Source of the DNA: a virus
Lineage: Duplodnaviria > Heunggongvirae > Uroviricota > Caudoviricetes
IMG/VR virus record: IMGVR_UViG_2778261316_000001
Span: 1 to 24,643 of that record
Reading direction: 5' to 3' (one strand)
Length of the DNA stretch: 24,643 nt
The notes under the pieces are model-generated. The model was not told where the DNA came from and searched no databases. It was given only the letters and a program-made list of their open reading frames with translations. Shown piece by piece: positions 14,776-20,643 of this stretch. The translations under genes and the position numbers were made by a program. Each line of letters opens with the position of its first letter. Positions within the stretch are counted from its first letter, which is position 1.

Positions 14776-14949
14776 TATCGCGTCCTCAACAATGAATTTT
14801 GTGATGCAGTGCCTGGTGCCTCCAGGTGACGTTAACCAGTTAACAATTAACGCCGGATACAGAGAATCCACCCATAACACTGTTTTTGGTTTTAACTGTT
14901 CCGCGTGCGCTCAGCCGCATTCACCACATCACAAAATTCACTTTAAAAA

Positions 14950-15002
14950 GGGCGGCAGAGCAGTCACGGAGTAAAACTGATACCGCCAAACGTCACCAGA
15001 AA
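14950..15002 (-). ncRNA. dicF: DicF small RNA (53 nt) with intrinsic terminator
   Basis: Reverse complement reads TTTCTGGTGACGTTTGGCGGTATCAGTTTTACTCCGTGACTGCTCTGCCGCCC followed by TTTTT, identical to the recalled K-12 DicF sequence. Confidence 0.9.
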
Positions 15003-15342
15003 ATTGATAACAGAGGGCGTTGCAGCGGGGTTGTCACTTAAGCGTATGGTCAACCTGACAACCCGGTGTCCTCAACGGGGAAGGAATAACCCCGCCATAC
15101 TTACCGCCGCGCCATTTCGCGGGTTGCCACAACCGGAAGCGCACGGTCGACGAAAATTTAACGACAGGCTATCTATGAACCAGCTACCTCGCCGTGCGCT
15201 TTCGCGTTATGGTCTGACTTTTCAGGGAAATATCCTTTCAGTAAACTGTCAGTGCCGGATGCTCACCCGTGTCCGGCGCACGCACTCCACCTCACCCGTG
15301 GAGAACTCCTTAATTACTAACCTTAGCTTTGTTGATTAGCTA

Positions 15343-15561
15343 CTAACGCGGGTATGTAATCATTCTGGCAATGCTTAATGCCGCTGCTTTTTCCAGATTG
15401 GTGATATCCTGCTCCAGAGCGGACAGATTTTCAGCCTGCTTAGCCCTGGTTTCATTGGCCCATTTCAAATCCTGCGCTGCATTAATTTTCTGGCGCATCC
15501 ACTCATAAAGTTCATCATCGGTATAGTCTGGCGCGATGATGACGGGTTCTCGTTTCTGCAT
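15343..15561 (-). CDS. ydfC: YdfC-like prophage protein, 72 aa
   Basis: Size and position (between ydfB and dicF) match the Qin dicB operon; sequence MQKREPVIIAPDYTDDELYEWMRQ... resembles recalled YdfC. Confidence 0.7.
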   Translation of the reverse strand: MQKREPVIIAPDYTDDELYEWMRQKINAAQDLKWANETRAKQAENLSALEQDITNLEKAAALSIARMITYPR

Positions 15562-15590
15562 ACTGATTCCTCGCGGTGCTGTTTCGCTTA

Positions 15591-15719
15591 TCAGCCGTTA
15601 GATTTTGCCGAACTGGAAAGCGCCTGTTTAAATTCGTTGAAGCTGAGAGCTTCTTCGCCGTCGGCAAGACCTTCCAAGTATTCTTCGTAAGCCTTTTCCA
15701 TGATTGTGTCGAAATCCAT
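15591..15719 (-). CDS. ydfB: YdfB-like prophage protein, 42 aa (MDFDTIMEKAYEEYLEGLADGEEALSFNEFKQALSSSAKSNG)
   Basis: Found by manual translation (below track cutoff); start is 2 nt after the ydfA stop; size matches K-12 YdfB. Confidence 0.6.
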   Translation of the reverse strand: MDFDTIMEKAYEEYLEGLADGEEALSFNEFKQALSSSAKSNG

Positions 15720-15720
15720 A

Positions 15721-15876
15721 TCACTCACCTGGGTTTCTTTCCAGCCAGCGACGGGCACCATTTTCGGTTTTAAACGTTTTGCTTTTGGTATACGTCATCG
15801 CGGTGAACGTACCGTCCTGGTTGGGGAACACGCCACATACCAGAGATTCGCTGTTGCCAAGATCGATAGTATCCAT
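15721..15876 (-). CDS. ydfA: YdfA-like prophage protein (DUF1391), 51 aa
   Basis: MDTIDLGNSESLVCGVFPNQDGTFTAMTYTKSKTFKTENGARRWLERNPGE; first gene downstream of the dicB-operon promoter. Confidence 0.7.
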   Translation of the reverse strand: MDTIDLGNSESLVCGVFPNQDGTFTAMTYTKSKTFKTENGARRWLERNPGE

Positions 15877-15990
15877 GCTGACCTCATTTCCCCTTAACGC
15901 CGGGGTAGCGGAACTGTTTGCTGAGAACACCGTGCGGTGTCTTGATGGAAAATAATTTAGAATAACCTAACATGAGAGGCAAGTGTTTTT

Positions 15991-16008
15991 TGTTAGATTG
16001 ATCTAACA
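15991..16008. promoter_or_regulatory. Palindrome TGTTAGA-TTGA-TCTAACA in the dicB-operon promoter region (candidate DicA operator)
   Basis: Perfect 7-bp inverted repeat between the dicA 3' end and the ydfA start; the same half-sites recur at 16502-16519. Confidence 0.5.
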
Positions 16009-16044
16009 AAAAGGGTGGGCGCAACTAATCACTTGAAAAGAATG

Positions 16045-16452
16045 TTATTTTATTGATTTATTTTTACGCGCTTTAAGCATTTCTTCGAAGAGTTTGTTGA
16101 AGTTTTCTACTCTTGCGCGCATTTCAGACAGCAAGGCTTCCTGCTCGGAAGATGGAAGAGCATCGAATAATTCGATCAATTCTTTGTGGTTGGGAGTTAG
16201 CTCTGTTTCCACATGAAGTTCTTGTGCAGGCACTGGTGCCTTGTCTTCGTCACCAAACATTAGCCATGTAGGTGAGCACTTCAGAGCATCCGCTAAAGCA
16301 AACAATCGTTTTCCGACTGGCTGGGTTTCGTCTCTTTCCCATTGTGAAATTGTGACGTGAGCAACTCCAGCGAGGCGCGCGGCTTCTCGTTGTGTTAAGC
16401 GTAATTCTTTTCGTCGCGCCAGAACTCGCTGGCCCAGGGTTCTTGTATCCAT
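16045..16452 (-). CDS. dicA: DicA, HTH-XRE repressor (cI-like), 135 aa
   Basis: N-terminal HTH (LRLTQREAARLAGVAHVTISQWERDE); C-terminal part (FALADALKCSPTWLMFGDEDK...EMRARVENFNKLFEEMLKARK) matches recalled DicA; divergent from dicC. Confidence 0.85.
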   Translation of the reverse strand: MDTRTLGQRVLARRKELRLTQREAARLAGVAHVTISQWERDETQPVGKRLFALADALKCSPTWLMFGDEDKAPVPAQELHVETELTPNHKELIELFDALPSSEQEALLSEMRARVENFNKLFEEMLKARKNKSIK

Positions 16453-16501
16453 AGTTAGGTAATTCTAATTTTTCTTGACTTAGGTATCCCGCGCACAATA
16501 A

Positions 16502-16519
16502 TGTTAGAAAAGTCTAACA
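16502..16519. promoter_or_regulatory. Palindrome TGTTAGA-AAAG-TCTAACA in the dicA-dicC intergenic region (candidate operator)
   Basis: Perfect inverted repeat just upstream of the dicC RBS (GAGGGGGG) and about 50 bp from the dicA start; a TTGACT -35-like hexamer lies upstream. Confidence 0.5.
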
Positions 16520-16533
16520 AGAGGGGGGCTTTG

Positions 16534-16761
16534 ATGCTTAAAGTTGACGCAATTACTTTTTTTGGCAGCAAAACAAAGCTTGCCAATGCCGCAGGAGTGA
16601 GGCTGGCAAGTGTTGCTGCTTGGGGGATACTGGTTCCTGAAGGTCGCGCGATGCGTCTACAGGAGGCATCTGGCGGGGAGCTTCAGTATGATCCCAAAGT
16701 TTATGATGAATATCGTAAGACGAAGCGGGCGGGGCGGTTGAACAATGAAAATCACTCCTGA
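16534..16761 (+). CDS. dicC: DicC, Cro-like regulator, 75 aa
   Basis: MLKVDAITFFGSKTKLANAAGVRLASVAAW...; start at internal Met after the RBS (the track start at 16501 would include the operator). Confidence 0.8.
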   Translation: MLKVDAITFFGSKTKLANAAGVRLASVAAWGILVPEGRAMRLQEASGGELQYDPKVYDEYRKTKRAGRLNNENHS

Positions 16762-17266
16762 ACAGGCTCGTGAGGCTCTGGATGCCTGGATATGTCGACC
16801 AGGAATGACACAGGAGCAGGCGACGATATTAATCACTGAAGCATTCTGGGCTTTGAAAGAGCGCCCGAACATCGATGTTCAGCGTGTCACAGATGAAGGT
16901 GGCGCGGTTGATCAGCGAGCGCTTGGTGTTAATCGAGTGAAGATATTCGAACGCTGGAAGGCTATCGACACCAGGGATAAGCGTGAAAAGTTCACGGCGC
17001 TAGTGCCTGCGATTATGGAGGCTATCCGGATTAGTGATTTCAGGTTGTATCGTGAAATTACTGACGGAAAAAGCATCACGTGCATGATCGCCGGGTTAAA
17101 CAAAGAATATGGCGATGTGGTGGAGTCCGGACTGCTTTTTGCTGATCCTGCCGTAGTGGATCGTGAAACTGACGAACTTATAGAAAAAGCAATTGCTTTC
17201 AAGCTTGCGTATCGACAGCAATACCAACAAAAAGCTGGATGGAATTATGAGCCTTCTTTTTGCTGA
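16745..17266 (+). CDS. Hypothetical prophage protein, 173 aa, in the cII/YdaT position
   Basis: ORF overlapping the dicC end and the replication gene start; no motif recognised. Confidence 0.5.
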   Translation: MKITPEQAREALDAWICRPGMTQEQATILITEAFWALKERPNIDVQRVTDEGGAVDQRALGVNRVKIFERWKAIDTRDKREKFTALVPAIMEAIRISDFRLYREITDGKSITCMIAGLNKEYGDVVESGLLFADPAVVDRETDELIEKAIAFKLAYRQQYQQKAGWNYEPSFC

Positions 17267-18190
17267 ACGCCCACTGGTTATAAACACGCAGCTGGCAATG
17301 AAAATTGGCTTAAACGAAGCCATTGTTTTGCAACAACTGCACTACTGGTTGAGAGATACCAACTCCGGCATGGAATGTGATGGTGTTCGCTGGATTTATA
17401 ACACAACGGAACAATGGCTGGAACAGTTCCCATTCTGGTCAGAGTCAACGTTAAAGCGCGCGTTTGCAAGTCTGAAAACGCTGGGGCTTTTGCGTTGTGA
17501 AAAGCTCAATAAATCAAAGCGCGATATGACCAATTTCTACTTTTAGATGGTGGCAAATTGAGCGAATCCATCGGTTCAAAATGCGCCGCTCCATCAGGTC
17601 AAAATGACACGATGGAAGAGGTCAAAATGAAACGCTCCATTGGTTCAAAACGACCCAATGTCATCGGGTCAAAATGGCCTGATGATCTTACAGAGAATAC
17701 AACAGAGATTACTACAGAGAATAAAAACACTTTTCGTCCGGAAGCTTCGCAACCGGACCCGCAGACGACTGAACAGGATTCTTTAACCCGGAACTCCGAC
17801 GCGGTTGTGTTTAGTGCGAAAAAACGCCAGTGGGGTAGCAGGGAGGATTTGGCGTGTGCGCAGTGGATCTGGGGGCGGATCGTGGGTCTCTACGAACAGG
17901 CAGCCAGTGATGATGGCGAGATCATGCGACCAAAAGAGCCTAACTGGACTGCCTGGGCCAATGACGTGCGCACAATGCGGATGCTGGATGGCAGAAGCCA
18001 CAGACAAATTTGCGAAATGTTTGGTCGGGTTCAGCGAGATCCATTCTGGGTAAAAAACATCATGAGCCCGTCAAAGCTCCGCGAAAAATGGGACGAACTG
18101 GTCATCCGCCTGGGACGTTCACCTGTACAGCGTTGTGTTAATCATATTTCTGAACCGGATACAGAAATTCCGCCTGGTTTCAGAGGATAA
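17247..18190 (+). pseudogene. Phage replication initiator (O-like) split into two frames at a T-run, with origin iterons inside
   Basis: N-terminal ~100 aa (MSLLFAERPLVINTQLAMKIGLNEAIVLQQLHYWL...) in frame 0 ends at 17546; continuation in another frame from about 17513/17558 to 18190; frames meet at ctacTTTTagatgg. Confidence 0.55.
17562..17680. repeat. Five iterons (consensus TCCATYGGTTCAAAATG) at 23-24 bp spacing, followed by an A+T-rich stretch: candidate prophage replication origin
   Basis: CAAAATG/CAAAACG cores at 17577, 17600, 17623, 17646, 17670; downstream acagagaatacaacagagattactacagagaataaaaac. Confidence 0.65.
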
Positions 18191-18230: not shown

Positions 18231-18653
18231 GTGGCAAAAGTTTTTACACAAGAAGAGCGGGAAAAAATTAAATGGCAGGTGGTGGAACTCGTGCGCCAGA
18301 GCGGCCGTGAGACGTTACGGCAACTGGAAGCTAAAACAGGTGCGACTAGATATCTGATGAGCGTTCTTGCCAGAGAGCTGGTAGCCAGTGGCGATGTATA
18401 CAACTCCGGCTACGGGTTATTCCCCTCTGAACAGGCGCGTAAGGACTGGCAAAACGCCCGCAAAAAACTCTCGAGGGCAAAGGTGAAGAAACCTGCTGTG
18501 GTTGATCCGGACCTTATCTGGTCATCACCTGACGGAGAAATACGTCGCTACGACAGTCGCCTAAACATAATCTGTCGCGAGTGCCGGAAGAGCGAAGTTA
18601 TGCAGCGCATACTGGCTTTCTATCAGGGTAATTTTCAGGACGTGGCGCAGTGA
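18231..18653 (+). CDS. Hypothetical prophage protein, 140 aa (GTG start)
   Basis: ORF after the replication gene, overlapping the methyltransferase start (GTGA); basic, with a CxxC pair (CRECRK). Confidence 0.4.
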   Translation: MAKVFTQEEREKIKWQVVELVRQSGRETLRQLEAKTGATRYLMSVLARELVASGDVYNSGYGLFPSEQARKDWQNARKKLSRAKVKKPAVVDPDLIWSSPDGEIRRYDSRLNIICRECRKSEVMQRILAFYQGNFQDVAQ

Positions 18654-20337: not shown

Positions 20338-20643
20338 ATACAGCGAACTCCATTGGTTTAGTTGGATATTTACTGTGCTGGACAAAAACGGTTTGCGGGG
20401 AAATCTTAGTTAAGTAGAATGACTGCGGGTGCTTGAGGCTATCTGCCTCGGGCATGGACACCAACGGCAGATAGAGAAAAGCCCCAGTTAACATTACGCG
20501 TCCTGCAAGACGCTTAACATTAATCTGAGGCCAATTTCATGCTAGACACATGTAGGTTAGCCTCTTACGTGCCGAAAGGCACGGAGAAGCAGGCTATTGT
20601 TAACACCAAGCTGTAATGTCCCCTTTGAACCATTCTAAAATGT

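Follow-up and report, generated by a model that had tools for sequence, protein, structure and literature searches.

The stretch of DNA considered here (24,643 nucleotides of a virus of the class Caudoviricetes, IMG/VR record IMGVR_UViG_2778261316_000001, called the window below) very probably carries the replication module of a Qin-like prophage, in which an origin of the lambda style lies inside the gene of an O-like replication initiator and the initiator itself was inactivated by a 22-bp deletion. The locus (17247–18190) now consists of two open reading frames (ORFs) on the plus strand. ORF1 (17247..17546; 99 aa ending in ...MTNFYF, with the TAG stop codon at 17544–17546) corresponds to a cut-short N-terminal winged-helix domain, the putative iteron-binding part of the protein. 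It is annotated by the NCBI Prokaryotic Genome Annotation Pipeline (PGAP) as WP_106425526.1 and matches phrog_6493 (5.6e-32) and phrog_391, 'replication initiation O-like' (8e-14). ORF2 (17558..18190) is a remnant of 210 aa, named 'phage replication protein O' by PGAP, and includes the linker encoded by the origin and a lambda-O-like C-terminal domain; it matches phrog_391 at 1.9e-70 across profile positions 102–298 of 298. Its start is uncertain, being TTG 17558 according to PGAP or ATG 17627 according to other gene callers. A reading made earlier from the sequence alone had placed the end of the N-terminal ORF at 17546 and the rest of the gene in another frame, and this was confirmed: ORF2 is in the -1 frame relative to ORF1 and is open from 17513 to 18190.

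The intact relatives NWU_4 and BL21 have one ORF of 966 nt, encoding 321 aa, at the same locus. This intact protein is aligned by its residues 17–321 to positions 11–298 of the 298-position phrog_391 profile (E 1.1e-91) and shares 100% identity with the protein annotated as 'DNA replication protein O' in Escherichia phage PhiR42_1. In genomes and database entries, the intact gene is mostly labelled 'hypothetical protein'.

Iterons and A+T-rich element inside the initiator gene

The repeat search at 17553–17684 gave five in-register copies with start-to-start distances of 23, 23, 23 and 24 bp. They are 23-bp iterons on the plus strand (17569–17591, 17592–17614, 17615–17637, 17638–17660 and 17662–17684) with the core CATCnGGTCAAAATG. 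Five 17-nt iterons at 17562–17680 had been claimed in the sequence-only reading; their number and their spacing of 23–24 bp held on the recount, and the unit is now read as a contiguous 23-bp repeat at 17569–17684. Tandem Repeats Finder also reported an array of period 23 at 17567–17640 (score 71), together with an array of period 12 at 17690–17723 (score 54, 2.8 copies). The core CATCRGKTCAAAATG begins at 17569, 17592, 17615, 17638 and 17662, always on the plus strand, with 0, 0, 3, 2 and 0 mismatches, respectively. When up to 3 mismatches were allowed, 8 matches to this core were found in the whole window versus 2.98 +/- 1.61 in shuffled sequences, and none of the 100 shuffles reached 8; the three matches outside the array have 3 mismatches each.

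Each 23-bp unit is a 10-3-10 imperfect palindrome centred on the A-tract GGTCAAAATGACC, and the arms of units 2, 4 and 5 are complementary at 8 of 10 positions. The iterons are putative binding sites for dimers of the N-domain of the initiator. Immediately upstream, a degenerate 'iteron 0' (GATGGTGGCAAATTGAGCGAATC, 17546..17568, plus strand), a 67% copy, is in the 23-bp phase of the array. In Klebsiella phage vB_VIPKPNMC05 (GATGAGGTCAAAGTGACC) as well as E. coli SCU-116 (GGTCAAAGTG), this position is occupied by a good iteron.

The array is followed by an A+T-rich region (17685..17737, plus strand), as had been noticed from the sequence alone, with 69.8% of A+T versus 52.7% in the window and with a purine-rich top strand. 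It contains about three tandem 12-nt units ACAGAGAATACA at 17690–17725 and can be regarded as a candidate DNA-unwinding element.

The question arises whether these repeats belong to an origin at all, or rather encode a repetitive peptide linker of the IGSK type or serve as operators for some other regulator. Repeated IGSK motifs do occur in the encoded peptide; nevertheless, such a reading is improbable in our opinion. The period of 23 bp is not divisible by 3, and the translation of consecutive units runs through three frames, as IGSK, SGQN and EVKM, so that it is the DNA, and not the peptide, that is repeated. Conservation in the repeats favours synonymous positions: in codon alignments of homologs, third-codon identity was 0.79–0.90 in the iterons versus 0.39–0.77 in the N-domain. 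Particularly, in the homologs from SCU-116 and the Klebsiella phage it reached 0.79–0.85 in the iterons and 0.78–1.00 in the A+T-rich part, against 0.39–0.46 in the N-domain, and the amino-acid identity of the iteron part was below that of the N-domain; Fisher tests on iteron and A+T-rich codons gave p = 1.7e-8 and 6e-7. In addition, the position of the repeats, their dyad symmetry, the central A-tract and the downstream A+T tract copy those of ori-lambda (PMC7466680).

The taxonomic comparison of repeats and domains points in the same direction. Relatives with the same N-domain (88%, 71% and 72% identical) retain CATCnGGTCAAAATG at the 23-bp phase, and among them Klebsiella phage vB_VIPKPNMC05 combines this N-domain and core with an unrelated C-terminal part (Phg_2220_C). 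Hafnia phage yong2, whose N-domain is 49% identical, has CATTGGGACAAATTGTCC at the 23-bp phase. Another N-domain connected to the same C-domain, as in E. coli strain 4/0 and Shigella phage VIT_AJPSC, is accompanied by TCAAAATCTGACCCG repeats with a 15-bp period. As judged from these alignments, the iteron sequence co-varies with the type of N-domain and independently of the C-domain, which also argues against a linker function of the repeats. The three-frame translation, third-codon conservation and N-domain co-variation uphold the earlier idea of a lambda-ori-like structure inside the initiator coding region, and the locus may serve as a natural example for recognising DNA-level constraint in coding DNA by these means.

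The A+T-rich module (ATCTTACAGAGAATACAACAGAGATTACT...AAAAACAC, with the 12-nt tandem unit ACAGAGAATACA) was also seen elsewhere (L021:1507-1552 and L017:1965-2001), in E. coli VL46 and in a Klebsiella phage. The L021 copy, from E. coli VL46, is situated in the middle of a gene for an unrelated initiator, 'LvrA C-terminal domain-related' (BLASTP against the O-like protein, E = 4.9). By eye, the VL46 gene has different upstream repeats, of the GGGAAAACC type; genes of the DnaC-like and DnaB-like kinds come after it. It seems that origins of differing iteron specificity share the 12-nt module as a portable unwinding element.

The 22-bp deletion and the distribution of alleles

Alignment of the window to intact homologous initiator genes, which the sequence-only reading had proposed as a check, revealed the nature of the frame change. 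Against the NWU_4 and BL21 genes there is a clean gap of 22 bp at 17539/17540 with a microhomology of 1 bp, and the 1,201-nt query extends over 1,223 nt in most of its E. coli matches. The lost segment, CACGATCAACTATGGGAGCGAG, encodes TINYGSEL and thereby the last strand of the wing (model strand 97–101, conserved Y-T-I-N-Y); its loss shifts the frame by -1. The junction 17539..17540 coincides exactly with the switch point ctacTTTTagatgg that had been named previously. Outside the gap, the window allele and NWU_4 differ by a single nucleotide. When the 22 nt are put back, an ORF of 321 aa is obtained, in which F186S is the sole difference from NWU_4; the restored allele is one residue apart from WP_000054512.1 of the E. 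coli Qin region.

A single-T indel was considered as the lesion and rejected. Addition of one T to the TTTT run does open one ORF, as had been suggested, of 314 aa; this ORF lacks TINYGSEL, and with the 22-bp deletion seen in the alignment it does not represent the ancestral state. Removal of one T leads instead to a stop at aa 120. The frame change is an inherited 22-bp deletion, and the initiator gene is now a pseudogene, formed in the course of prophage decay; of the three possibilities listed in the sequence-only reading, it is the inactivating frameshift that proved correct in the comparison with the intact 966-nt gene.

The initiator is cut before the end of its DNA-binding domain; without an intact initiator of matching specificity provided in trans, the replicon should be dead. 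In the PGAP annotation of NZ_CM194533.1, the remnants are listed as separate intact coding sequences, 'hypothetical protein' and 'phage replication protein O', and not as one pseudogene. This annotation should be corrected by joining the two pieces into one pseudogene.

That the origin and the frame change are connected, as the earlier description of their common location implied, was not supported. The deletion ends 6 bp 5' of the degenerate sixth iteron, and the repeats are not involved. Slippage or recombination between iteron units was rejected as the cause, as the deleted segment does not look like an iteron by eye and the microhomology that flanks it amounts to 1 bp only. The closeness of the lesion to the origin looks coincidental.

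The intact 966-nt gene is common, with about 1,700 complete genomes of E. coli, and Escherichia phage PhiR42_1 too, carrying it; at least 80% of the 1.2-kb query region was found in 1,715 complete E. coli genomes. Carriers of the deletion were counted with a 40-nt junction probe and by exact-protein look-ups. Of 5,426 complete RefSeq E. coli genomes, the source genome alone gave a hit with the probe. In a public assembly collection, 253 blocks index the exact 99-aa product, which has been recorded from 143 contigs, versus at least 1,000 for the intact NWU_4 protein. The same junction was present in all seven independent assemblies retrieved (L005–L011; from NCBI, ENA, Logan and JGI), one of which is a 5.1-Mb contig, and these seven carriers have 0–1 mismatches across 944 nt. 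Homologs with 57–100% identity are single ORFs of 320–330 aa, and among the listed hits of 4,280 database homologs single ORFs of 290–330 aa overwhelmingly predominate.

Three of the seven carriers (L005, L007 and L011) have also lost 2.1 kb corresponding to positions 14860–16959 of the window. This loss takes in DicF, ydfC/B/A, the dicA-like repressor, dicC/cro and the start of the YdaT/cII-like gene, that is, the immunity region, and is a continuing stepwise decay of the same prophage lineage.

Another type of allele, encoding 290 aa, was noticed in E. coli (P0016–P0021). The aligned representative, P0018, has an in-frame deletion of 31 aa, or 93 nt (23+23+23+24), which takes out exactly four iterons and could have arisen by recombination of iteron 1 with iteron 5. 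It is the converse of the window, with the initiator in frame and most of the origin gone.

Could the broken allele be maintained because it is useful? When a phage with the same type of replication enters, its initiator or its helicase-recruitment step might be titrated or poisoned by the iterons, the 99-aa N-fragment and/or the C-fragment with its DnaT-like tail. In lambda, phages of the same rep type are prevented from replicating by plasmids with oop and iterons ITN3-4 (PMC3349717), and a decoy in the prophage would be analogous to this 'inhibition phenotype' of plasmid-borne ori-lambda. The record of the allele on 143 contigs and the intact origin DNA are in favour of such a function, which, if true, would represent a prophage-encoded exclusion device targeted at replication. 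We nevertheless hold it to be unlikely. The carriers differ by only 0–1 nt over 944 nt, which is consistent with one recent clone and gives no sign of selection, and some of them went on to lose the adjacent 2.1 kb of the immunity region. The N-fragment without the wing strand, as predicted by modelling, may not fold or bind, and neighbouring genes are pseudogenes too.

There is even less probability that the gene is split by design, either into two genes for DNA binding and recruitment or through programmed ribosomal frameshifting at TTTT-TAG. The two ORFs correspond roughly to two domains, the motif GGTGG is located 4 nt upstream of TTG 17558, and both pieces are called coding sequences by PGAP. 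Against this, every homolog examined has the gene as one ORF, and the split allele, which arose by deletion, has lost the conserved Y-T-I-N-Y wing strand; with the junction in only 1 of 5,426 complete genomes, a genuine two-protein arrangement is excluded as the design of the family. As to frameshifting, ORF1 has no slippery heptamer of the X XXY YYZ type, and a +1 slip on TTTT would reach a stop after 20 codons, whereas ORF2 needs -1.

A sequencing or assembly error, for instance a miscalled T homopolymer in a strain with an intact gene, would fit the location of the junction in a TTTT run, the single 314-aa ORF opened by one more T and the rarity of the junction among complete genomes, and yet its probability is practically negligible, since the alignment gives a clean 22-bp gap and no 1-nt indel and the identical junction in seven of seven assemblies, together with the product on 143 contigs, excludes such an error.

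The O-like initiator in comparison with lambda O

Location of the origin within the O gene has been textbook knowledge since lambda. Lambdoid origins consist of iterons within the O gene and an A+T-rich stretch; lambda has 4 such iterons, whereas Stx phages have 6 (PMC7466680). By its sequence, the region in the window has the features of a lambdoid origin, namely repeats with a dyad, the corresponding location, an A+T tract, co-variation with the N-domain and constraint at the DNA level. As in ori-lambda, the putative origin is central in the initiator gene, flanked by the sequences for the N-terminal domain, which binds DNA, and the C-terminal domain, which serves recruitment; the lambda iterons occupy codons 117–146 of O, and those of the window about codons 115–153 of the intact 321-codon gene, where they coincide with a very low-confidence linker (aa 102–174) of the protein model. 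The 4–6 direct repeats with internal dyad and central A-tract resemble those of ori-lambda and of the Stx phages P27 and 933W. An A+T-rich, purine-skewed tract is directly downstream in both cases, with a peak of 75% in a 40-nt window for lambda and 69.8% here. The gene follows cro- and cII-like genes and a pR-like promoter, as in lambda, and its C-domain has 36% identity with the lambda O counterpart (aa 170–294 of the intact protein against the C-terminal part of lambda O; tblastn, E 2e-16). Matches to phrog_277, phrog_2357 and phrog_391 are common to the intact protein and lambda O.

At the same time, there are several differences. The iterons of the window are 23-bp units CATCnGGTCAAAATGACnnGATG, in contrast to the ~19-bp units ATCCCTCAAAACGAGGGAT of lambda. 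The N-domain is not of the PF04492 type, a DUF977/Ren-like gene is next instead of P, the protein has a DnaT-like tail which the compared lambda O sequence lacks, and the initiator of the window is a pseudogene. With respect to the PHROG 391 proteins (WP_000054512.1 and the 'DNA replication protein O' of PhiR42_1), it is the same gene, to which the window adds the frameshifting 22-bp deletion.

Some of the data weigh against the interpretation of this locus as a lambda-type replication module. The N-domain gave no match to Pfam Phage_rep_O (PF04492), for which lambda O scored 5.7e-36 in the same search. The AlphaFold2 model has low confidence (mean pLDDT, i.e. predicted local distance difference test score, of 52), and only weak matches (E about 0.02) were obtained for its fold. 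The A+T content of the A+T-rich region is no higher than about 70%, and directly 3' of the initiator in the window there is DUF977 and no P-like or DnaC-like loader gene. The N-domain appears set apart from that of lambda O, and on the evidence of these searches the protein is no strict homolog of lambda O at its DNA-binding end. As regards membership of the lambda O family, sequence similarity supports it for the C-domain, and a PF04492 N-domain and an adjacent P gene were not found; the protein is, on present sequence evidence, best filed as a PHROG 391 O-like initiator.

The best PHROG matches of the N-domain are phrog_6493 and related initiator families. In Pfam and NCBIfam, both fragments and the intact protein gave nothing significant, only a sub-threshold match to Slx4 and a match of the tail to DnaT. 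As a side observation, aa 3–129, which include the N-domain, show 43–46% identity with initiators or 'DnaD-like' proteins from phages of Staphylococcus and Bacillus (e.g. NC_021332.1). Such cross-phylum conservation of the N-terminal winged-helix domain is unusually high for a phage DNA-binding domain.

The AlphaFold2 model of the intact protein was built on a shallow alignment of 12 sequences and is usable for domain boundaries and topology only. It contains a winged helix at aa 14–101 (H-H-b-b-H-H-b-b), the linker at 102–174 with very low confidence and a helical C-domain at 183–295. In Foldseek, no match at E <= 0.001 was obtained with the modelled N-domain; the best ones, at E about 0.02, were winged-helix DNA binders led by 4pql and 5kbj, described in the database as 'N-Terminal domain of DNA binding protein' and 'Rep-DNA complex'. 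These are structures of N-terminal domains of RepA (RepA_N type, from staphylococcal multiresistance plasmids) with iteron DNA. They share the winged-helix fold over 103 aligned columns, with a target-normalised TM-score of about 0.56–0.58; with 17% identity, E about 0.02 and a low-confidence model, this means a resemblance of folds and not membership of one family.

The last 21 residues of ORF2 (VQRCVNHISEPDTEIPPGFRG; 18125..18187, plus strand) resemble the C-terminus of the host primosomal protein DnaT. In a sequence search of the PDB, only this tail was matched (phmmer: 2ru8, 6aep and 9zbt, E 0.013–0.044), apart from a chance match to yteR. In the NCBIfam DnaT model, it is aligned to positions 160–179 of 179 with E 0.0037, far below the curated cut-off. 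The motif IP-GFRG is invariant in the aligned homologs, even where the preceding residues diverge. Because the initiator is without an adjacent P- or DnaC-like gene in the window, the tail could be a mimic used for reaching the host primosome or helicase loader. We found no paper on DnaT-like tails in phage initiators.

The gene 3' of the O-like initiator differs from one prophage to another. It is DUF977/Ren-like in the window, BL21 and NWU_4, codes for an IstB/DnaC-like ATPase in 08_3449 (L012:2620-3360), and in AB66 is replaced by genes of a helix-turn-helix protein and a P-loop ATPase. This variability suggests alternative helicase-loading routes for the same initiator.

Taken together, the following scheme may be proposed for the intact module. 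The initiator of 321 aa would consist of an N-terminal winged-helix domain, a disordered linker and a lambda-O-like C-domain, and the DNA coding for the linker would double as the origin, composed of five or six palindromic 23-bp iterons and then an A+T-rich element of 12-nt tandem units. By analogy with ori-lambda, dimers of the N-domain would bind the iterons to form an O-some, the adjacent A+T-rich DNA would then open, and the C-terminal part would recruit the helicase machinery of the host; rightward transcription from the pR-like promoter would probably help. In the source genome and its lineage, the 22-bp deletion removed the last wing strand and shifted the frame, giving the 99-aa N-fragment and the 210-aa remnant; the origin DNA remained untouched and the initiator encoded in cis was destroyed, a further lesion in a prophage that was defective already.

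No paper on the origin of the PHROG 391 family or on PhiR42_1 was found. To our knowledge, the origin of this O-like family is previously undescribed, and the frame change is an ordinary case of pseudogenisation. The iteron sequence, its phasing and the unwinding module are now defined for a very common family, found in roughly one third of complete E. coli genomes, that of BL21 among them; no new biological question is opened by these results.

Prophage context

The whole 24.6-kb window corresponds to positions 4764335–4788977 of NZ_CM194533.1, the genome of E. coli isolate 12, with 100% identity in the 1.2-kb region round the initiator locus. It contains the left arm of a Qin-like lambdoid prophage and adjoins rspAB and ynfA-D. 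The prophage genes follow each other in the order integrase, excisionase, 3'-5' exonuclease, ydfD, dicB, DicF RNA, ydfC, ydfA, dicA-like repressor (16045–16452, minus strand), dicC/cro-like, YdaT/cII-like (16745–17266; PF06254 and phrog_163), the two initiator ORFs and DUF977/Ren-like (18231–18653), the latter being the next gene after the O-like initiator. The synteny of dicA-like, dicC, ydaT-like, O-like and DUF977 genes is common to the window and its intact relatives. To the right of the replication module, PGAP annotates a frameshifted methyltransferase, other pseudogenes, fragments of insertion sequence (IS) elements, relBE, hokD and rem. These pseudogenes and IS elements downstream indicate that the prophage is already defective.

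A pR-like sigma-70 promoter (16475..16502, plus strand; TTGACT-16-AATAAT) was predicted by a consensus scan only, with 10 of 12 hexamer positions matching the consensus. It is located upstream of the cro/dicC-like, cII/YdaT-like and O-like genes and directed rightward through the origin. Transcription from this predicted promoter may activate the origin, as in lambda.

The Rfam scan gave no match in the origin region; its hits in the window, DicF and sok, are both elsewhere. DicF RNA (14950–15001, minus strand) lies between dicB and ydfC. The sok antitoxin RNA (20427–20598, plus strand; 104 bits) is of full length and is situated just 5' of a truncated ISEsa1 transposase; the annotation shows no adjacent hok gene.

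The YdaT/cII-like and O-like ORFs share 20 nt in the window (17247–17266), so that a small indel in this overlap would fuse both genes. In fact, fusions of 448 aa, with PF06254 and the O-like part in one protein, occur in some E. coli assemblies (P0001, P0002 and P0004).

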